Shown: positions 440 through 9,159, counted from the first letter of the stretch. The stretch is 33,177 nucleotides of DNA from Deferrisomatales bacterium (GCA_033551855.1 JAWSUI010000043.1:1-33177), one strand, 5' to 3'. Numbers and translations are program-made. The notes: generated from the sequence alone by a model not told the origin.

Positions 440-1033
440 ATGCCCCACCCCGACGACCGCAGGGCGCAGATCTTCACGGCCGGGGCCCGTCTGTTCGCCG
501 AGAAGGGTTACGGGAGGACGAGCCTCCAGGAGGTGGCCGATGCCCTCGGGGTCACCCGCCCCGCCCTCTACTACTACTATCGGTCCAAAGAGGAACTCCT
601 CTTCGAGATCACGTCGTTCGTCATGGACCGGGTGGCGGCCGACCTGCAGGAGGTGGCGGCCGGCAGCGGCTCCCCCCTGGAGAAGCTCCGGGACCTGATC
701 GGCCGGTACGTGCGGTTCTTCGCCTCCCACCCCCACGAGCTGACCATCATGTCCACGGAGGTGGACTCCCTCGGGCCCGAGAGGCGCGAGGTCATCCTGG
801 AGCGCCAGCGGGGGTACCTGCGCACGGTGCGCTCCATCGTCCGGGAGTTGCTGGGGGACCACCCCGGGACGCCCCTGGACGAGACCTCGGTGGCCTTCGC
901 GCTCCTGGGCGGAATGAGCTGGATCTTCAAGTGGTACGACCCGGCCGGCCGGGTGAGCCCGGAGAAGCTGGCCGCCGACTTCACCCGACTCTTTACCTAT
1001 GGGCTCCAGGGCCCGCCCCGTGGAGAGGAGTGA
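440..1033 (+). CDS. TetR/AcrR family transcriptional regulator (KstR2-like C-terminus)
   Basis: HTH LFAEKGYGRTSLQEVADALGVTRPALYYYYRSKEELL; C-terminal WIFKWYDP; ATG 440 with AGGAG 7 nt upstream. Confidence 0.9.
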   Translation: MPHPDDRRAQIFTAGARLFAEKGYGRTSLQEVADALGVTRPALYYYYRSKEELLFEITSFVMDRVAADLQEVAAGSGSPLEKLRDLIGRYVRFFASHPHELTIMSTEVDSLGPERREVILERQRGYLRTVRSIVRELLGDHPGTPLDETSVAFALLGGMSWIFKWYDPAGRVSPEKLAADFTRLFTYGLQGPPRGEE

Positions 1034-1040
1034 CGCGACC

Positions 1041-2192
1041 ATGTCCCAGTTCGAGCTGACCCCGGAGCAGAAAGACATCCAGAAGGCGGCCCGGGAGTTC
1101 GCCCAGGGGGAGTTTCCCCAACGGGCCCGGGAGGCCGACCAGCAGGAGGAGTTTCCGCAGGAGCTCTACAAGATGGCGGCAGACCTGGGCTTCCTGGGGC
1201 TCTTCTTCCCGGAGGAGTACGGGGGGGCGGGCCTGGGCTATCTGGAGTTCTGCCTCATGGTGGAGGAGTTCTGGCGAGCCGACCCCGGCCTGGGGCAGGC
1301 GCTGGGATCGGTAACCTTCGGGGCGGACCTCCTGCTGCTCCACGGCACGGAGGAGCAGAAGCGCCGGTACCTCCCGCCGATTTGCACGGGCGAGGCCATC
1401 ATGGCCGCGGCCATCACCGAGCCGGACGCCGGGAGCGACATCGCGGCGGTGACCACGGCGGCGGTCCGCGACGGGGACGAGTGGGTGATCAACGGCACCA
1501 AGATGTTCATCACCAACGGCATTTCCGCCAAGTTCGTCCTGGTGTACTGCCTCACCAACCCTCACGCCCCGAGCCGGCACGAACGGCACTCGTGCCTGAT
1601 GGTCGAGACCGACCGGCCGGGCTACAAGGCCACCAAGCTCCACGGCAAGCTCGGCATCCGGGCCTCGGAAACCGCCGAGGTGGTCCTGGACGGGGTGCGG
1701 GTGCCGGCCGACAACCTCGTCGGCACGGAGGGCATGGGGTTCTTCCACTTCATGGACTTCTTCAACCGCACGCGGCTCCACATCGCGGCCCAGGGCGTGG
1801 GCGTGGGCCAGGGGGCGCTGGACAAGGCCGTCCGGCACGTGAGGAACCGCGTGCAGTTCGGGCAGCCCCTTGCGGCGTTCCAGGGGGTTCAGTTCAAGAT
1901 CGCGGAGATGGCGACCCGGGTGGAAGCCGCCCGGGGCATGGTCTACCGGGCCGCGGCCCTGGTGGACGACGGCACCGTGGACCACCGCCTCATCGCCATG
2001 GCCAAGTGGTACGCCGGGGAGACGGGGGTGCGGGTGGCGGACGAGGCCCTCCAGCTCCACGGGGGTTACGGCTACCTGGCCGAGTACGACGTGGAGCGCT
2101 TCTACCGCGACGCCAAGATCGTGGAGCTCTACGAGGGCACCAAGGAAGTGGAGAAGCAGATCGTGGCCCGGACCCTCCTGGGGAAGGTCTGA
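1041..2192 (+). CDS. acyl-CoA dehydrogenase
   Basis: Motifs PEEYGGAG, AITEPDAGSD, NGTKMFITNG, KLGIRAS, QFGQPL, LQLHGGYGY, YEGT; ATG 1041. Confidence 0.95.
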   Translation: MSQFELTPEQKDIQKAAREFAQGEFPQRAREADQQEEFPQELYKMAADLGFLGLFFPEEYGGAGLGYLEFCLMVEEFWRADPGLGQALGSVTFGADLLLLHGTEEQKRRYLPPICTGEAIMAAAITEPDAGSDIAAVTTAAVRDGDEWVINGTKMFITNGISAKFVLVYCLTNPHAPSRHERHSCLMVETDRPGYKATKLHGKLGIRASETAEVVLDGVRVPADNLVGTEGMGFFHFMDFFNRTRLHIAAQGVGVGQGALDKAVRHVRNRVQFGQPLAAFQGVQFKIAEMATRVEAARGMVYRAAALVDDGTVDHRLIAMAKWYAGETGVRVADEALQLHGGYGYLAEYDVERFYRDAKIVELYEGTKEVEKQIVARTLLGKV

Positions 2193-2217
2193 CGGCAGGT
2201 CATGGACGGGGTATTAG

Positions 2218-2379
2218 GACAGGATGACAGGATGAACAGGATGAACAGGATGACTGTGGCAGGGCGGGTTGGAAAACCCGGAAATCCACTCTGTGCTGAG
2301 GTTTCAGGCCTCCTTGTTGTGGCGACAACGAAGAATACCCTTGCGTGGCGGACTGTCCCGACCATCCTGCCATCCTGTC
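2218..2379. repeat. gene-less inverted-arm element A (ACAGGATG tandem units plus complementary arm)
   Basis: Four tandem (A)ACAGGATG units at 2218-2252; right arm CATCCTGCCATCCTGTC (2363-2379) complements 2218-2234 at 16/17; lower-GC interior. Confidence 0.75.
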
Positions 2380-2392
2380 GAAGGATCTACCC

Positions 2393-3532
2393 GTGACCAA
2401 GATTCGCGACATCGACGGCGTCGCCCTGGCGGAGCGGTTCGAGCTGGGGGCTTGCCTCCAGTGCGGGCGGTGCACGGGGGGGTGCCCCATGAGCCTGCGC
2501 TCCCCCCTGAACTCCCGGCGGCTCCTGTACGAGAGCCTCCTTCGAGAGGACGGGGAGGCCCTCCTGGACCGGGAGGAGGTCTGGGACTGCACCGCGTGCC
2601 GCACCTGCGCGGACCGTTGTCCGCGGGGGCTCGAGCCGGTGGAGGTGATCCGGGCCATTCGGACGGTGAAGATCGAGGGCGGCCGCATCCCGGAGACGGC
2701 CATGGCGGCCCTGGAGTCGAGCCTCAAGCACGGAAACCCCTGGGGCCGATCCCGTCAGAAGCGCACGGCCTGGGCGGAGGACGCAGCGGTGCGCAGCCTG
2801 GAGGAGGACCAGGAGTCCGAGCGGCTCTGGTTCGTGGGGTGCACCCCGGCCTACGACCCCCGGTGCCAGGGCATCGCCCGGGCCCTGGCCCGGGTCTTCG
2901 ACGCAGCGAAATACGATTACACGACCCTCGGGGCGGAGGAGGTCTGCTGCGGCAGCGAGATCCTGCGCCTGGGGGAGCAGGGGCTCTTCGAGGAGCTCGC
3001 CGAGACCAACCGGGAGAGCTTCCGGGAGCTCGGGTTCCGGGAGGTGGTCGCGACCTCCCCCCACTGCATGAACACCTTCCGCGGCGACTACCGGCTGGAG
3101 ATCCCCGTCCGTCACTACAGTCAGGCCCTGGCGGACCTGGCCGCCGAGGGGAGGATCCCCTTCGGGAAGGACGTCCCCCTGCGGGTCGCCTTCCACGATC
3201 CCTGCTACCTGGGGAAGCAGAACGGCGTCTACGAAGCCCCCCGGGAGGTGCTGGGTTCCGTGCCGGGAGTGGAGCTGGTGGAGTTCGACCGCTGCCGGGA
3301 GCGGAGCCTGTGCTGCGAGGGAGGCGGGGGCCGCATGTGGATCGAGGGGTTGGGCGAGGGGGAGCGAAACGCCCAGCTCCGGGTGCGCGACGCGGCGGCA
3401 ATGGGGGTGCACGCCGTGGTGACGGCGTGCCCCTTCTGTCTCCTGACCCTGGAGGACGCCCGGAAGACGGTGGGCCTGGAGGAGAGCCTCGAGGTGATCG
3501 ACCTGGCGGAGCTCGTGGAGCGGGGGCTGTAG
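2393..3532 (+). CDS. soluble Fe-S oxidoreductase, HdrC-like ferredoxin plus CCG domains (HdrD-like)
   Basis: CLQCGRCTGGCP, CTACRTCADRCP, VGCT, EVCCG, HDPCYLG, CCEGGGG, TACPFC; GTG 2393 after AAGGA; no membrane segment visible. Confidence 0.85.
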   Translation: MTKIRDIDGVALAERFELGACLQCGRCTGGCPMSLRSPLNSRRLLYESLLREDGEALLDREEVWDCTACRTCADRCPRGLEPVEVIRAIRTVKIEGGRIPETAMAALESSLKHGNPWGRSRQKRTAWAEDAAVRSLEEDQESERLWFVGCTPAYDPRCQGIARALARVFDAAKYDYTTLGAEEVCCGSEILRLGEQGLFEELAETNRESFRELGFREVVATSPHCMNTFRGDYRLEIPVRHYSQALADLAAEGRIPFGKDVPLRVAFHDPCYLGKQNGVYEAPREVLGSVPGVELVEFDRCRERSLCCEGGGGRMWIEGLGEGERNAQLRVRDAAAMGVHAVVTACPFCLLTLEDARKTVGLEESLEVIDLAELVERGL

Positions 3533-3548
3533 AACCTTAGATCGGATG

Positions 3549-3696
3549 GACGGGATAACGGGATGAGCAGGATGGAAGGATCTTGTGCGCAGAGGCGAGT
3601 TTCCTTTCCCGTACAAGATCGATGAAGCATTCAGGGGTATCACCAGGGACCCCTCACCACCCCGGGTGGTCATCCTGACCATCCCGTTATCCCGTC
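3549..3696. repeat. gene-less inverted-arm element B
   Basis: GACGGGATAACGGGATG (3549-3565) is perfectly complementary to CATCCCGTTATCCCGTC (3680-3696); stem extends to 24/26 bp around a 96-nt loop; outer arms identical to those flanking GxxExxY. Confidence 0.8.
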
Positions 3697-3733
3697 GATA
3701 AGGGCTCTTGACCTTTCTCTGAGGAGGGACCCC

Positions 3734-4525
3734 ATGAACGTGGCCGTCTTCGTGAAGCACGTCCCCGACACGACCGAGGCCGACCTGCAGGTGGCGGCCG
3801 ACGGCCGCTCCCTCAAGGCCGGGGGGCTCCCGTACCAGATGAACGAGTGGGATCGGTTCGCCCTGGAGGAGGGCGTGCGGCTCAAGGAGGCCTCCGGAGG
3901 CACCCTGACCGCGTTCCTCCTCGGGCCCGAGGAGCACGAGGAGACCTTGCGGCGGTGCCTGGCCGTGGGGGCCGACCGGGCGGTGCGGGTCTGGGACCCG
4001 GCTCTGGAGCGGCAGGGGCCGGTGGCCGCGGCCCGCGCGCTCGCCGCGGCCGTGGGCGGCGAAGCCTTCGACCTGTGCCTCTGCGGCGCCCAGGCGGACG
4101 ACGACGGGTACGGGCTCGTGGGCCCGACCCTGGCGGTCCTCCTGGCGATGCCGAGCGCGAGCCTGGTGAATCGCCTGGAGGTGCGGGACCGGGTCGCGGT
4201 CTGCGCCCGGGAGCTGGAGGGGGGCTGGAGCGAGGTCGTGGAGCTCGACCTCCCGGCCCTGATCACCGTCCAGACGGGCATCAACGAGCCCCGCTACGTG
4301 TCCGTGCTCGGCATCCGGAAGGCCCGCTCCAAGCCCATCGACCTGGCGGGGCTGGACGCCCTCGGCCTCTCCCCCGAGGCCGTCGGGGAGACCGGCAGCC
4401 GGCTCCGGGTGGAGGCCCTGGCCCCCCCGCCCCCGGGCAAAGAGGCCGAGCTTTTCACGGGATCGCCCGAGGAGATCGCCGGTCGCTTCGTGGCCGTGCT
4501 CAAGGAGAAGGGAGGTGTCCTGTGA
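3734..4525 (+). CDS. etfB: electron transfer flavoprotein beta subunit
   Basis: VKHVPD, MNEWDRFALEE, GADRA, CGAQADD, LPALITVQTGINEPRY; RBS GAGGAGG. Confidence 0.92.
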   Translation: MNVAVFVKHVPDTTEADLQVAADGRSLKAGGLPYQMNEWDRFALEEGVRLKEASGGTLTAFLLGPEEHEETLRRCLAVGADRAVRVWDPALERQGPVAAARALAAAVGGEAFDLCLCGAQADDDGYGLVGPTLAVLLAMPSASLVNRLEVRDRVAVCARELEGGWSEVVELDLPALITVQTGINEPRYVSVLGIRKARSKPIDLAGLDALGLSPEAVGETGSRLRVEALAPPPPGKEAELFTGSPEEIAGRFVAVLKEKGGVL

Positions 4526-5499
4526 GCGTCTGGGTCGTCGTGGAGCACCGGAACGGCTCGGTGCGCGAGGTGACGGGGGAGCTCCTGAGCGTGGCCCGGG
4601 CCCTGGGCGCCGGCCCGGTGACGGCGGTGGTGCTGGCGGGTCCCGGCGAGGCGGCCGCCCTGGCCGGGGCGGCCAAGGGGCGCGCGGACCGCCTCCTCCT
4701 GCTCGAGCACCCGACCCTGGCCGGTTTCAACGGCACCGCGGCGGCCGCCGCCCTGCGCGACGCGGCCCGGTCCCGGGCGCCGCGGGTGGTGCTCGGCGCC
4801 CACTCGGCCGCCGGTACCGATTGGGCCCCGACCCTGGCCGCCCTGCTCGACGCCCCCGTGGTCACCGACGCGCTCTCCCTGGCCTGGGACGACGGGGGCC
4901 TCTCCGCCCTCCGGGCCGTCTACGGCGGCAAGCTGCAGGCGCGGGTCCGGCTGCTGCCGGCGGACACCGTGGTGGCGACCCTGCGCCCGGGCGGCACCGA
5001 GGCCGGGTCGGCCTCGGGAGGCGCCGACGCCGAGGTGGAGTCGGCGACGCCGGACCTGCCCGCCTCCCTCGGGAAGCGGTTCGTCGAGTGGGTCCAGGAG
5101 GCGGCCGGCGCGGTGGACATCACCCAGGCGGACGTGCTGGTGAGCCTGGGGCGGGGGATCGGCGACAAGGAGAACGTCGACGTCGGCGTGGCCCTGGCCG
5201 AGGCCCTGGGGGCCACGGTCTCCTGCTCCCGGCCCGTGGTCGACGCCCACTGGCTGCCCAAGGAGCACCAGGTGGGGATCTCGGGCAAGACCGTCAAGCC
5301 CAAGGTCTACATCGCCCTGGGCATCTCGGGCGCCTTCCAGCACGTCAGCGCCATGCAGGGCTCCGGGGTGATCATCGCGGTCAACAAGGACTCCAAGGCC
5401 CCCATCTTCCGCGTGGCCCACTACGGTATCGTCGGAGACCTGTTCAAGGTCGTCCCGACGCTGACGAAGGCGGTGAGGGCGGCGAGGAGAGCGGGCTGA
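4522..5499 (+). CDS. etfA: electron transfer flavoprotein alpha subunit
   Basis: RAVYGGK, ADVLVSLGRG, CSRPVVD, QVGISGKTVKPKVYIALGISGAFQH, NKDSKAPIF; GTGA overlap with etfB stop. Confidence 0.92.
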   Translation: MSVWVVVEHRNGSVREVTGELLSVARALGAGPVTAVVLAGPGEAAALAGAAKGRADRLLLLEHPTLAGFNGTAAAAALRDAARSRAPRVVLGAHSAAGTDWAPTLAALLDAPVVTDALSLAWDDGGLSALRAVYGGKLQARVRLLPADTVVATLRPGGTEAGSASGGADAEVESATPDLPASLGKRFVEWVQEAAGAVDITQADVLVSLGRGIGDKENVDVGVALAEALGATVSCSRPVVDAHWLPKEHQVGISGKTVKPKVYIALGISGAFQHVSAMQGSGVIIAVNKDSKAPIFRVAHYGIVGDLFKVVPTLTKAVRAARRAG

Positions 5500-6048
5500 C
5501 GGGATAACGGGATGGACGGGATGGAGGAAGATCAGGGGCGACGGCTGCGGAGAACGGGAGATGGCGAGAGGCACCAGCGGTCAGGTCGAGCCGGTTCGAG
5601 GTGACGGGATATCGGGATGCACGAGATGGAGGGGGACCACACGTGGCGTTTCGGGAGGTCACAGAAACCATAATCGGGTGCGCCTATCGCGTTTACAATG
5701 CGATGGGTCACGGATTCCTGGAGTCCGTCTATGAGAAGTGCCGTCTCATTGAGCTCCGCAGCTTCGGCCTTCAGGTAGAGAACCAAAAATCCATAACCGT
5801 GAGGTATCAAGGTGAGGTGGTCGGAGAATTCGTGGCGGACCTGCTGGTGGAAGGCAGCGTCATTGTCGAGCTGAAGGCGGTGCGAAAGTTGTCACCTGTC
5901 CACGAGGCCCAGCTCGTAAACTACCTTGTGGCGACGGAAAAGCCGGTGGGGCTCCTTGTGAACTTTGGCGAAACTCGGGTGGAAGTCAGAAGAAAGGTCC
6001 CCAAGCTTCTTCCAGGAGAATCCATCCTTTGAATCCCGTTATCCCGTC
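5498..6048 (+). mobile_element. putative hairpin-bounded GxxExxY cassette (element C)
   Basis: GACGGGATAACGGGAT (5498-5513) is a perfect inverted repeat of ATCCCGTTATCCCGTC (6033-6048); degenerate extra arm at 5603-5619; encloses a lower-GC nuclease-fold ORF. Confidence 0.6.
5643..6032 (+). CDS. GxxExxY protein (PD-(D/E)xK nuclease superfamily)
   Basis: GFLESVY signature; ADLLVEGSVIVELK (D...ExK); EAQLVNYL and GLLVNFG; GTG 5643 after GGAGGG; about 53% GC counted over 5641-5820. Confidence 0.9.
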   Translation: MAFREVTETIIGCAYRVYNAMGHGFLESVYEKCRLIELRSFGLQVENQKSITVRYQGEVVGEFVADLLVEGSVIVELKAVRKLSPVHEAQLVNYLVATEKPVGLLVNFGETRVEVRRKVPKLLPGESIL

Positions 6049-7417
6049 CGAAACTCCCCCGTCAGCCCTCGTAGTGGGGGCGGGGATCGCCGGGATCCAG
6101 GCGGCCTTGGACCTGGCCGAGGCGGGGGTGAACGTCACCCTCGTGGAGCAAGGGGACTCCATCGGGGGCCGCATGGCGCAGTTGGACAAGACCTTCCCGA
6201 CGCTCGACTGCTCCTCCTGCACCCTCACCCCCCGCACGGCCGAGGCGGGGAGCCACCCCCGCATCCGGCTCCTCACCCGGGCCGAGGTGGTCTCCCTGGA
6301 GGCCCAGGACGGCGGGTTTCGGGCCCGGGTCCGGGTGCGGCCGCGCTACGTGGACCCGGAGGCCTGCGTGGCCTGCGGGAAGTGCAGCGAGGCGTGCCGG
6401 CTGCGAGGCCGGGTGCCGCGGGAGTTCGACCTGGGGCTCGGCCGGGGCAGCGCCATCGGCGTGCCCTTCCCCCAGGCGGTACCCGCGACCTACGCGGTCG
6501 ATCCGGCCCGCTGCCTCCACCTGACCCGGGGCAAGTGCGGGGATGGCCCCCGCTGTGCGGAGGCCTGCGACGTGGGCGCGGTCCGGCTGGACGAGACGGA
6601 ACGGGTGGAGGAAGTGGCGGTGGGTGCGGTGGTGGTCGCGACGGGTTGGTCCCCCTACCGGCCGGACGACCCCGAGACCGGCAGGCCGGAGCTGGGCTTC
6701 GGCCGCTACCCCGAAGTGGTCACCAACCTCCAGTTCGAGCGGCTCTGCTCCGCTTCGGGTCCCACGCAGGGGAAGATCCGGGTGCCGGGGGCGGAGGGTT
6801 CGCCCCGGCGGGTCGCCTTCCTCCAGTGCGTGGGGTCCCGGGACCGCACCACCGGCGCGGCCTACTGCTCCCGGGTGTGCTGCATGGCGAGCCTGAAGCA
6901 GGCGGTGCTCGTCAGGGAAAAGCTCCCGGAGGCGGAGGTGACGGTGCTCTACATGGACCTGCGGGCCTTCGGGAAGGGCTACGAGGAGTTCCTGGAGCGG
7001 GCCCAGCGGCTGGGGGTGGTGCTGCGCCGGGGAAACCCCTCGGAGCTCTACCGGAAGGGGGACGCCCTCGCCGTCCGGTTCGAGGACACACTGTTGGGAA
7101 CGGCCCAGGAGCTCGCGGCCGATCTGGTGGTCCTGGCCGGCGGCCTGCGGCCCACCCCGGACCTCCCGGAATCGGCCCGGGTGCTCGGCGTGGACGTAGC
7201 CGAGGATGGCTTTCTGGCCTGCCCCGACCCGCGGGACCCGGTGCTCTCGACCCGTACCGGCGTCTTCCTGGCCGGGGCGTGCCGCGGGCCCCTCGACATC
7301 CCCGACGCCGTGGCCTCGGGGTCCGCCGCCGCCGCGGCGGCCCTGGGGCACCTCCTGGGAGCGGGCGCGGAGCCCGGAAGAGCGCCCCCCCCCTCGGACG
7401 AGCGGCAGGCCTCATGA
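6029..7417 (+). CDS. hdrA: HdrA-like flavoprotein with inserted ferredoxin domain, lacking the N-terminal CxCG domain
   Basis: LVVGAGIAG, GGRMAQLDKTFPTLDCSSC, CVACGKCSEAC, PFPQAVP, FLQCVGSRD, YCSRVCCM, YMDLRAFGKGYEEF; TTG start overlapping the GxxExxY stop (start uncertain). Confidence 0.85.
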   Translation: MNPVIPSETPPSALVVGAGIAGIQAALDLAEAGVNVTLVEQGDSIGGRMAQLDKTFPTLDCSSCTLTPRTAEAGSHPRIRLLTRAEVVSLEAQDGGFRARVRVRPRYVDPEACVACGKCSEACRLRGRVPREFDLGLGRGSAIGVPFPQAVPATYAVDPARCLHLTRGKCGDGPRCAEACDVGAVRLDETERVEEVAVGAVVVATGWSPYRPDDPETGRPELGFGRYPEVVTNLQFERLCSASGPTQGKIRVPGAEGSPRRVAFLQCVGSRDRTTGAAYCSRVCCMASLKQAVLVREKLPEAEVTVLYMDLRAFGKGYEEFLERAQRLGVVLRRGNPSELYRKGDALAVRFEDTLLGTAQELAADLVVLAGGLRPTPDLPESARVLGVDVAEDGFLACPDPRDPVLSTRTGVFLAGACRGPLDIPDAVASGSAAAAAALGHLLGAGAEPGRAPPPSDERQAS

Positions 7418-9159
7418 AGCCCGAACCCCGACCCCCGACCCCTGTCACCCCAAGGGGCGCGGCCGTCTACCTCTGCCACTGCGGCCAGAACATCGCGGCC
7501 ACGGTGGACGTGGAGGCACTGGCCGAGGAGCTCGCGGCCAAGCCCGGGGTCTCGGTGGTCCGGCACTACCCCTACCTCTGCTCCCGGCCCGGCCAGGAGC
7601 TGCTCCGAGACGACCTCCGGCAGGGCCGCGCCGGAAGAGTGGTGGTGGCGGCGTGCTCGCCCCGGATGCACGAGTCCACCTTCCGCAAGGCTTGCGGGGC
7701 GGAAGGCCTGAACCCCTACCTGCTGTGTCACGTGAACGTGCGGGAGCAGTGCTCCTGGGTCCACCCGGACCGGGGGGAGGCCACGGCCAAGGCTCGGGAG
7801 CTGGTGCTCATGGGGCTGGCGCGGGTCCGGACCCAAGAGCCCCTGGAGGGGCGCGAGGCACCCGTGGTGCCCGCGGCCCTGGTGGTGGGGGGTGGGCCGG
7901 CGGGGCTGGCCGCCGCGGCCTCGTTGGCCCGGATGGGGCTGGGGGTGGTGCTCGTGGAGGCGGCCGGGCACCTGGGCGGGCGGGCCGCCGCCCTGGGCCG
8001 GTCCTTCCCCGAGGGGGGCGAGGTGGGGCCGTGGCTCGCCCAGCGGGTGGGGGAGATGGCGGGGAACCCCCGGGTGGAAATCCTGCTCGAGAGCCGTCTC
8101 GTCTCCCTGGAGGGTCCTCCCGGAGGCTTTCGGGCCGTCCTGGAGACCCCGGCCGGAGCCGTCGAGCGCGCCGTCGGCGCCGTGATCGTCGCCTCCGGGG
8201 GGGGCCTCTACCGCCCGGACCACCCGGAGGAGGGCAGGCCGGAGCTGGGGTACGGGTCCGACCCCCGGATCGTCACCCAGGAGGAGCTGGAGGAGCGGTT
8301 CCGGGGGAGCGAGGGCCCCGTGGGGGCCGAGGGGGAGCCCGCCCGGTCCGTCGCGTTCCTCCAGTGCATCGGGTCCCGGGACACCACGGCCGGGGCGGCC
8401 CACTGCTCCCGGGTGTGCTGCATGGTGAGCGTGCGCCAGGCCGAGGAACTGCGCTCCCGGAACCCCGGGGCGACCGTCCAGGTGCTCTACATGGACCTGC
8501 GGGCCTACGCCCGGGGGGCCGAGGAGGCCTACGAGGCGGCCGCCCGGGGCGGGGTGCTCTTCCGGAGGGGGAGCGCCTCGGAGGTCTACCGGAAGGGGGA
8601 CGCCCTCGCGGTGCGTTTCGAGGACACCCTGCTCGGCGAGGCACAGGAACTGGAGGCCGACCTCGTGGTCCTGGCCTGCGGGGCCCGGCCCGCCGAAGGG
8701 GCCGGGGAGCTGGGCCGGGCCCTCCGGATCGCGACCGGGCCCGACGGGTTCTTCCTGGAGGCCCACCCGAAGCTCCGGCCGGTGGAGACCGCCTCGGCCG
8801 GGGTCTACCTGGCCGGGGCGTGCCAGGGGCCCAAGGCGATCGACGAGGCCGTCAGCTCGGGGCGGGCCGCGGCGGCGCGGGCCGGGGCGCTCCTGCTCCG
8901 GGGCCGGATCGACGTGGATCCCGCGGTCGCGGAGGTGGACCCCGACCGGTGCGCCGGCTGCGGGCTGTGCGCACCCCTGTGCCCGGCCGGGGCGCTCTCC
9001 CCCCTCCCCCACACCGGCCGGATGGGGGCCGAGCCGACCCTGTGCCAGGGCTGCGGCGCCTGCGCCGCCGCCTGTCCCTCCAAGGCCGTGAGCCTGCGCC
9101 ACCACCGCATCGGGCAGATCCTCGCGGAGCTGGACGTCGCCGCCGGCGGAGGCCGGTGA
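7414..9159 (+). CDS. hdrA: HdrA-like flavoprotein with N-terminal CHCG domain and C-terminal 2[4Fe-4S] ferredoxin
   Basis: YLCHCGQNI, ACSPRMHE, NVREQCSWVH, VVGGGPAG, QCIGSRD, CSRVCC, EAHPKLRPVET, CAGCGLCAPLCP, CQGCGACAAACP; ATGA overlap. Confidence 0.88.
   Translation: MKPEPRPPTPVTPRGAAVYLCHCGQNIAATVDVEALAEELAAKPGVSVVRHYPYLCSRPGQELLRDDLRQGRAGRVVVAACSPRMHESTFRKACGAEGLNPYLLCHVNVREQCSWVHPDRGEATAKARELVLMGLARVRTQEPLEGREAPVVPAALVVGGGPAGLAAAASLARMGLGVVLVEAAGHLGGRAAALGRSFPEGGEVGPWLAQRVGEMAGNPRVEILLESRLVSLEGPPGGFRAVLETPAGAVERAVGAVIVASGGGLYRPDHPEEGRPELGYGSDPRIVTQEELEERFRGSEGPVGAEGEPARSVAFLQCIGSRDTTAGAAHCSRVCCMVSVRQAEELRSRNPGATVQVLYMDLRAYARGAEEAYEAAARGGVLFRRGSASEVYRKGDALAVRFEDTLLGEAQELEADLVVLACGARPAEGAGELGRALRIATGPDGFFLEAHPKLRPVETASAGVYLAGACQGPKAIDEAVSSGRAAAARAGALLLRGRIDVDPAVAEVDPDRCAGCGLCAPLCPAGALSPLPHTGRMGAEPTLCQGCGACAAACPSKAVSLRHHRIGQILAELDVAAGGGR

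Follow-up and report, generated by a model that had tools for sequence, protein, structure and literature searches.

Tandem-unit hairpins and a boxed GxxExxY nuclease-fold gene in a Deferrisomatales operon: a candidate repeat-and-enzyme partnership

Three palindromic elements punctuate an energy-metabolism operon (acd-FeS-etfB-etfA-hdrA) of a Deferrisomatales bacterium (GCA_033551855.1 JAWSUI010000043.1:1-33177), and one of them, here called the cassette, encloses a gene for a GxxExxY protein of the PD-(D/E)xK superfamily. The window, that is the whole stretch of 33,177 nucleotides analysed, is contig C43 of an assembly of 4.24 Mb and 69.6% GC. The three features are members of a class of hairpin elements that is widespread and has hardly been described; its arms are built of short tandem units. 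Such arms are linked to GxxExxY genes in related genomes and across many phyla, and their units change together with the sequence of the protein. The arrangement may be a REPIN/RAYT-like partnership with a PD-(D/E)xK protein in the place of the transposase, an interpretation that we rate just short of an even chance. The genome of the window is denoted G000 and the other genomes of its family (eight in total) G001 to G007.

The link between arms and gene was scored as an exact inverted repeat of at least 12 nt around the gene. Among the 20 GxxExxY loci with full flanks found in 41 related genomes, 16 are flanked in this way; the controls give none of 40 windows moved by 1100 nt and 3.1% of 3000 windows drawn at random from G000. 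Across many phyla and one archaeon, where 73 of 80 loci from genome contigs were used, the gene is boxed in 45 of the 73, with 2/73 and 1/73 in the controls. An earlier account of the window made from its sequence alone (the sequence-only reading) had proposed a test of whether such arms are enriched around GxxExxY genes elsewhere, and both surveys bear the association out. The arm units vary on one theme across loci, e.g. ACAGGAT, CACAGAT, CACGGAT, CGCAGAT, CGCCGAT, CACAGAG, and CGCCAAG. On a protein tree of 26 genes, 12 changes account for the arm types, where shuffled labels need 16.9 on average and none of 200 shuffles is as low. The GGAT clade of this tree (SH-aLRT 97) holds the five orthologs of the cassette gene together with genes of two other families, and genes of one genome that have different arms fall into different clades. 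In an automatic Mantel test of arm 6-mers against protein identity, with one of the five orthologs kept (58 loci), r is 0.288, a value reached by none of 2000 permutations. Pairs sharing arm 6-mers have 59.7% protein identity, against 49.5% in other pairs. The nearest relatives of the protein, in Desulfobacterales and Nitrospiraceae records, have GACAGGATAACAGGAT arms. GCAGATT arms are frequent (at least 4 matches) only in G004 and G037, two genomes in which they box a gene, and in G028, whose gene is truncated by the end of a contig. Five of the six family genomes that bear the arms of the window also have the cassette, and both genomes without these arms (G004 and G006) are without it. The joint change of arm sequence and nuclease suggests a working partnership.

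Within the window, the palindromes have arms of tandem 8-9-nt GACRGGATR units and lie at the acd|FeS, FeS|etfB, and etfA|hdrA junctions. The ACRGGATR unit occurs 15 times, compared with 2.28 expected and a maximum of 5 among 100 shuffles, and 14 of the 15 matches fall within the three elements. Hairpin 1, an A-variant, has paired arms of 24 nt (2218-2241 / 2356-2379) with 83% complementarity. Hairpin 2 has long arms of 29 nt (3546-3574 / 3671-3699) at 90%, with 96 nt in between; its core (3549-3564 / 3681-3696) consists of the same 16-nt arms as the cassette. In the cassette these arms, GACGGGATAACGGGAT (5498-5513) and ATCCCGTTATCCCGTC (6033-6048), are perfect, and they extend to 28 nt with 86% complementarity (5498-5525 / 6021-6048). 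The arm coordinates of the sequence-only reading hold at all three junctions upon a check of the sequence, as does its remark that the GxxExxY open reading frame (ORF) is lower in GC than the operon (54.9% GC and 66% at third codon positions, versus 69-76% and 92-96% for the neighbours). Its statement that all three elements share one orientation is uninformative, since an inverted repeat has the same sequence on either strand. The left arm of the cassette is duplicated in tandem, 5492-5534 and 5597-5639 being 81% identical and about 105 nt apart. The duplicated stretch (5492-5639) corresponds to the left arm plus the region that holds the ribosome-binding site (RBS) and start in G003 (GGGAGATGGCG). 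Of the two copies, the outer still matches the right arm perfectly and the inner sits before the live start codon of the GxxExxY gene.

The arms had been treated as a feature of one operon; they are in fact a genome-wide family in G000. Two-unit arms number 45 left and 43 right, with 1 and 1 in the reversed genome. An nhmmer profile built from 41 seeds gives 75 arm matches, which resolve into 26 paired hairpins and 23 unpaired arms. Only one intact GxxExxY gene is present in the genome, so that the gene-less sister copies already suspected from the window greatly outnumber the gene. An arm is made of about three tandem 8-9-nt units with the consensus TTTTG-GACRGGATRACRGGATGGACRGGATG, and its mirror image stands at the opposite end of the element. 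Loops are 4-149 nt long, and 387 nt in the gene-bearing copy; when 20 G000 loops were compared no two were similar. The idea that the gene-less GGAT hairpins are internally deleted cassettes gained no support, as none of these loops resembles the cassette interior. No further TIGR04256 remnant was found in the GGAT hairpins of G000, and one remnant was found in another arm family (contig C9).

Counts of the exact 16-nt arm pattern are 41 in G000, 50 in G001, 19 in G002, 14 in G003, 78 in G005, and 9 in G007. The pattern is absent from G004, G006, and all 13 same-order genomes of other families, and the reversed-pattern control gives 0 in every genome. Judged by these counts the arm family, in its exact form, is confined to this bacterial family. 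The dominant arm variant is genome-specific; in G005 nearly all arms are GACAGGATAACAGGAT, those at orthologous operon junctions included. In G005, whole hairpins have also been amplified in local tandem, and one left arm may precede two or three right arms. A run of N lies within an array of at least five tandem GGAT left arms in the same genome (C73:760-1530). Tandem arm arrays probably break assemblies, and arm and gene counts in draft genomes are therefore lower bounds.

Where both neighbours of a G000 hairpin were called, the hairpin always lies between co-directional genes, and an independent gene caller places all 15 hairpins with both genes no more than 130 nt away between co-directional genes; the background is 635 of 939 gaps (60-600 nt). 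The genome-wide gene caller is crude and found 2485 genes only. For each of the four hairpins that it classed as convergent or divergent, a neighbouring gene is at a distance of over 770 nt, and the caller put one hairpin within a gene. The elements begin after a T-run and end before an A-run, opposite to the terminator layout. No arm of the three window elements scored as an intrinsic terminator, and the sole terminator match in 2000-6300 lies inside the loop of hairpin 1, where 1.5 are expected by chance. With no arm flagged and the T-run and A-run in reversed placement, the elements were rejected as intrinsic terminators.

These features could be read at the level of RNA. The elements would then resemble intervening sequences (IVSs): the arms would form a stem of 24-29 bp in the mRNA, RNase III would cut it, and the operon transcript would be split into separately stable parts, with the GxxExxY gene as loop cargo having no role in spread. 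A strong precedent is described for the Coxiella IVS, with its 28-bp stem, tandem GACAGAT, loop ORF, and RNase III cleavage in the stem (PMC4990558), and phage T7 early mRNA is given as a parallel for stem cleavage by RNase III. The confinement of the hairpins to gaps between co-directional genes, the absence of terminator scores, the T-runs and A-runs, and, at hairpins 1 and 2, the RBS of the downstream gene close behind the right arm all agree with such a role. So do the lengths of the stems and their strong predicted RNA folds, which reach -65.9 kcal/mol (z -2.9) for hairpin 1, -85.9 (z -8.3) for hairpin 2, and -231.7 (z -3.3) for the cassette, where the outer 16-bp stem closes the whole 551 nt in both the minimum-free-energy and the centroid fold. 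Against this, transition mismatches give a G-U wobble in the sense strand 35 times and in the antisense strand 37 times (p = 0.91), and the sense strand folds better than the antisense in only 18 of 26 hairpins (p = 0.075). Pair-specific covariation is also absent in G000: of 28 positions, paired arms have 20.04 in common and arms taken from different hairpins 20.01 (p = 0.49), and therefore each arm follows the family consensus and not its partner. The primary sequence of the units is conserved across phyla together with the protein, which a stem alone would not need. Moreover, in G000 and G003 the right arm contains the start codon of hdrA, which a cut in the stem would sever. An explanation through RNA processing alone seems unlikely.

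The gene-bearing copy occupies one orthologous site. A GxxExxY gene lies between GGAT-type arms at etfA|hdrA in G000, G001, G003, G005, and G007, which represent three genera; protein matches to etfB, FeS, acd, and hdrA fix the loci. The junction is empty, with a short plain spacer, in G006, a congener, and in the outgroups G014 and G018. On the HdrA tree G006 groups with G003 and G007 (SH-aLRT 99) and is nested among the cassette-bearing genomes, and therefore one gain and one loss make the simplest history for the cassette as read from these sequences. G006 is also without GGAT hairpins (0 exact; 7 scattered singletons at no more than 2 mismatches versus 1 in the control). The presence/absence variation anticipated for orthologous operons was thus found. 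Spread of the gene-bearing copy was not: it exists as one copy, fixed at the same orthologous place in five genomes, and is an old resident there. The arms of the cassette vary on both sides together, being GACGGGAT/ATCCCGTC in G000 and G003, GACAGGAT/ATCCTGTC in G001 and G007, and GACCGGAT/ATCCGGTC in G005.

The cassette seems, moreover, to be wired into the translation of the operon, the left arm giving the stop of etfA and the start of hdrA lying in or before the right arm. In G000, G003, G005, and G007 the etfA stop is a TGA whose T precedes the arm and whose GA opens it, so that in the window the stop (5497-5499) shares two bases with the start of the left arm; G001 has a TAA within the arm instead. 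The right arm is in the hdrA reading frame in all five, downstream of or around the only plausible start. In G000, TTG at 6029 is the only hdrA start codon upstream of the Rossmann strand, and it overlaps the stop of the GxxExxY gene (TTGA); in G003 the two overlap as GTGA. The right arm encodes residues 2-7 of hdrA (NPVIPS) in G000. The Rossmann motif of the HdrA-like protein begins at residue 13-15, and the arm therefore encodes an N-terminal extension. The HdrA N-terminus SPDPV of G018 (locus L036, 4640-4680) resembles the arm-encoded PDPV of G001 and G007, a likeness that may be due to chance.

Gene-less hairpins appear less stable in place than the cassette. At FeS|etfB, four genomes have a hairpin, with unrelated loops, and the junction is empty in G006 and G014, where the genes overlap by ATGA. 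A different unit family is found at acd|FeS in G003, and yet another at mvhD|metV in G003 and G006. The metV|metF junction is filled in G001, G003, and G005. In G002, of the same genus as G000 and with 91-94% flank identity, the metV|metF hairpin is missing and about seven bases stand instead, including the TCAA that ends the right arm of G000; at sequence level this reads as a near-precise deletion. At mvhD|metV, G002 has a hairpin with a homologous loop and one unit fewer on both arms than G000. No target-site duplication is seen at the G000/G002 filled and empty pair. With this result and with their unrelated interiors, the elements were rejected as miniature inverted-repeat transposable elements (MITEs). 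The acd|FeS spacer of G014 (locus L035, 540-610) holds a one-sided run of TTCCCGG heptamers.

The protein in the cassette was rightly placed in the PD-(D/E)xK superfamily from the outset; profile scores, catalytic-type residues, and predicted fold agree. The ORF matches PF13366 with E 2.9e-41 and 140.9 bits (cut-off 22) and TIGR04256 with 144.3 bits (cut-off 35). The motif G24-E27-Y30 and residues D66, E76, and K78 are present; in an alignment of 50 sequences G24, E27, E76, and K78 are invariant, and Y30 and D66 are retained in at least 90%. An alignment-based AlphaFold2 model (pLDDT 89.9) has a predicted PD-(D/E)xK fold, for which Foldseek gives Cas4 SSO0001 (E 2.6e-4) and VIA-align gives 3ijm (Z 8.6, root-mean-square deviation 3.3 over 100 residues). 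The model thus predicts a generic nuclease fold of this superfamily, nearest to Cas4, lambda exonuclease, Hjc, and restriction enzymes. With the protein as query, the PDB gave no relative by sequence (best E 0.4). The GxxExxY family is very large: among 8000 candidates scored, 7914 clusters belong to it at E < 1e-10, and full-text literature searches for GxxExxY and PDDEXK_3 returned no functional study. The dN/dS of the cassette protein is 0.06-0.17 in the 7 of 10 ortholog pairs where it was computable, dS being saturated in the other three; the protein is under purifying selection. A GxxExxY remnant of 47 residues (E 1.7e-10) lies at C9:84504-84868 in G000, still within a perfect 16-nt inverted repeat with arms of the GCAGAG type, which suggests a cassette that is decaying where it stands.

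It is the primary sequence of the units that is conserved and goes with the protein from host to host; loops vary freely, and no selection on pairing is visible. Together these point to a protein that reads the units, for which the boxed nuclease-fold protein is the obvious candidate. Under a partnership of this kind, a single-copy, vertically inherited PD-(D/E)xK protein would recognise the primary sequence of the tandem units in DNA and would act on the arms in trans: it would nick or cut them, and other copies would serve for the repair. Cutting and repair would hold the arms near a genome-specific consensus and would seed new gene-less copies at intercistronic sites. The homogenisation of arms within a genome, inclusive of the orthologous junctions of G005, would fit repeated cutting and short-tract repair. 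The gene-less hairpins would be non-autonomous and would be lost through ordinary slippage deletions across the palindrome, and the cassette would persist because its removal would take the hdrA start too. In this way a selfish cassette could become hard to lose by supplying the stop and start codons of its neighbours.

Several observations weigh against such a partnership. The pairing of the arms is, by the comparison above, not visibly selected in G000. Copying of whole elements in REPIN or MITE style is unseen among the 20 G000 loops and the dispersed copies of G005, which leaves a spread of the arms alone unexplained. The dispersed hairpins of G005 also differ in their loops, and no strand-joining activity is evident for a nuclease fold of 129 aa. 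Contigs of one DNA run covering the hairpins and the cassette contain no excision or joined forms, a result that is uninformative on expression or excision. The arm-type labels on the protein tree were set by eye (before the tree was built), and host relatedness is not removed from the Mantel correlation. Arms and gene can also part company. ACGCAAMG arms, which box a GxxExxY gene in G001, occur 20 times in G000 and 17 times in G005, and in neither genome do they enclose a GxxExxY gene. A CAGCTGG-unit hairpin is common to G003 and G006, and G006 has no GxxExxY or four-helix-bundle match at the thresholds used. G002, with its 19 exact arms, has no GxxExxY match at 86% completeness. Lastly, other cargo is found in arms of similar build: genes for four-helix-bundle proteins (TIGR02436 / PF05635) are boxed by arms of other unit types, and a hicAB pair lies between ACGCAACG hairpins.

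Among eight four-helix-bundle loci of relatives, four have an exact repeat of at least 12 nt, and two G000 loci are boxed by eye. One of the G000 loci (C116:1-500) is a four-helix-bundle gene (TIGR02436, E 1.6e-26) between GAGGAC/GTCCTC units. The other (C3:142220-142950) is a longer ORF with a weak PF05635 match below the cut-off, boxed by TATAGGAC units. The hicA/hicB pair is on the minus strand at C48:2040-2977, between hairpins of another unit family (CTCACGCAACGACGCAACG...). A census of other arm families based on Tandem Repeats Finder was insensitive and returned 36 paired arrays only.

Three kinds of cargo in arms of the same build, and arm families without a cognate gene, are what would be expected if the hairpins were safe havens. 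Tandem-unit palindromes would arise, change, and vanish by slippage and repair in the host, and small selfish genes (GxxExxY, four-helix-bundle, and toxin-antitoxin) would insert into or survive in their loops, the link of gene and arm reflecting joint transfer instead of recognition. Unit-number changes, serial right arms, and local tandem amplification fit this, as do the different unit families found at the same junction by genus (acd|FeS in G003; mvhD|metV in G003 and G006). Slippage, however, fails to explain dozens of dispersed arms with a consensus of at least 30 nt and unrelated loops. It also fails to explain the same 8-mer unit beside related proteins in different phyla, and the joint absence of arm family and cassette from G006. 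These failures make the safe-haven account quite unlikely in our judgement.

Paired sites of a similar kind have been described in Geobacter metallireducens by Aklujkar et al. (2009, PMC2700814): they lie on opposite strands at a variable distance, each with 3-5 tandem repeats of 7-9 nt, and one pair lies between proB and proA. They occur in tens of copies, some between genes of one operon. The present hairpins agree with that description in strand, tandem repeats, variable distance, and copy number. In the account given there, the sites are read as binding sites of a global regulator, with no link drawn to GxxExxY or any other boxed gene. By analogy, each arm might be a site array for a host DNA-binding protein (IHF/HU-like or other), and the pairs might organise or regulate operons. 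Conservation of the sequence and not of the pairing would suit this. A candidate regulator is lacking, however; sites present in one congener are missing from another, a single genome can hold several unrelated unit families, and the link to a nuclease-fold gene is left unexplained. Regulator binding as the explanation is accordingly regarded as very improbable.

In Coxiella, according to PMC4990558, the 23S rRNA IVS is closed by a terminal stem of 28 bp, contains the GACAGAT heptamer three times in tandem and an S23p ORF, and is excised by RNase III. It is there said to be vertically inherited and regarded as selfish, its ORF is decaying, and an old idea that the ORF serves mobility is quoted. 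The IVSs of Coxiella and Leptospira (S23p / PF05635 ORF), so far as described there, are like the cassette in having a small ORF inside terminal inverted repeats with a stem of about 28 bp, and the 5' arm region in Coxiella has tandem GACAGAT heptamers, a unit that resembles the present arms. The cassette likewise has terminal repeats and a long stem around a small ORF (28 nt, 86%, 16 perfect; 551 nt overall). It differs in lying at the etfA|hdrA junction of an mRNA operon and not in a 23S rRNA helix, in having a PD-(D/E)xK ORF instead of a four-helix bundle, in the purifying selection on this ORF (versus the decaying ORF of Coxiella), and in having dozens of gene-less sister copies.

A REPtron consists of a single-copy, vertically inherited RAYT gene flanked by inverted copies of a short repeat that is dispersed gene-less in the genome. 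As is generally known of RAYT genes, the gene is single-copy and flanked by the dispersed repeat, and gene and repeats co-occur; the present elements share these properties. They differ in that the boxed gene is PF13366 and not an HUH/Y1 transposase (PF01797), in that the loops are not conserved (20 loops), and in that the arms are arrays of tandem units. Membership among RAYT systems was rejected, as the 11 Y1_Tnp (PF01797) matches in G000 include none beside GGAT units or tandem-unit arms. The sequence-only reading had proposed a REP/RAYT-like or IVS-like system. Its second half stands in so far as the cassette shares the long stem, the GACAGAT-like heptamers, and the ORF of the Coxiella IVS (in PMC4990558, as cited above), and its first half does not extend to Y1 transposase genes, which are not arm-flanked.

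Integron attC sites are also similar, in being imperfect palindromes with conserved outer parts and a variable centre, placed between co-directional genes, and single right arms separate toxin-antitoxin modules on contig C99 of G000. Unlike in integrons, the genes that flank the elements in the window are syntenic core genes and not cassettes. An integron link was rejected, there being no integrase in G000 (TIGR02249 best 84.2 bits versus a cut-off of 265). The C99 island (C99:1-8229) holds HicB-like, three PIN, MazE- and Phd-like antitoxin, and AAA/DUF4143 genes. Five single GGAT right arms without a left partner lie between its modules, at 140, 1862, 3641, 5322, and 6666, i.e. 1.3-1.8 kb apart, and three of the five are preceded by the same sequence of about 60 nt. 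The island resembles a cassette array; the genome has no integron integrase.

The partnership of arms and nuclease could be taken one step further. GxxExxY would then be the enzyme of a third prokaryotic repeat-and-enzyme partnership, beside insertion sequences with MITEs and RAYTs with REPINs, in which a minimal nuclease reads units of 7-9 nt and maintains and seeds arms by cutting and short-tract repair without transposing the whole element. This extension is a tentative conjecture, and on balance we lean against it. If true, it would explain conserved arms around unrelated loops and would unite the 23S rRNA IVSs, the Geobacter 'regulator sites', and thousands of unexplained GxxExxY genes. 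IVSs have been without a mechanism since the 1990s, and the Geobacter repeats were left as 'unidentified regulator sites'. The window is an unusually clean natural experiment, with a cassette fixed in five genomes and empty junctions in a nested congener and in outgroups, to which the filled and empty pair at 91-94% flank identity and the change of unit number on both arms add. The effect of the protein on its arms thereby becomes directly testable.

The features of the operon in the window are collected in Table 1.

Table 1. Arms, boxed gene, and operon genes in the window (positions counted from its first nucleotide)
Feature	Position	Strand	Basis or remark
Acyl-CoA dehydrogenase (acd)	999-2192	+	Domain profile match
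Hairpin 1, left arm	2218..2252	+	Four tandem ACAGGATG(A) units
Hairpin 1, right arm	2356..2379	+	CATCCTG units; then RBS-like GAAGGA and the FeS GTG start (2393)
CCG/4Fe-4S protein (FeS)	2393-3532	+	Domain match; GTG start 2393
Hairpin 2, left arm	3546..3574	+	GACGGGATAACGGGATGAGCAGGATG
Hairpin 2, right arm	3671..3699	+	Inverted-repeat search
EtfB	3734-4525	+	Domain match
etfA	4522-5499	+	ETF and ETF_alpha domains; stop TGA 5497-5499
Cassette, outer left arm	5498..5525	+	Three units
Cassette, inner, duplicated left arm	5603..5630	+	GACGGGATATCGGGATGCACGAGATGGA
GxxExxY PD-(D/E)xK gene	5643..6032	+	GTG start; 129 aa; PF13366 / TIGR04256
Cassette, right arm	6021..6048	+	Covers last codons and stop of the GxxExxY gene; read in the hdrA frame
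HdrA-like FAD/FeS oxidoreductase (flavoprotein)	6029-7417	+	Domain match; start TTG 6029

An open frame of 1064 codons at 5965-9159 is a high-GC artefact that spans two genes. The HdrA2-type matches in it (its residues 733-1059) come from another gene farther on, and the HdrA-like gene proper is in the frame of 6029-7417. Elsewhere in G000, GGAT hairpins stand at the first two junctions of an mvhD-metV-metF operon (C1:52018-54089), and metF is followed by an unpaired right arm. This operon is another of the electron-bifurcation type, punctuated like the operon of the window.

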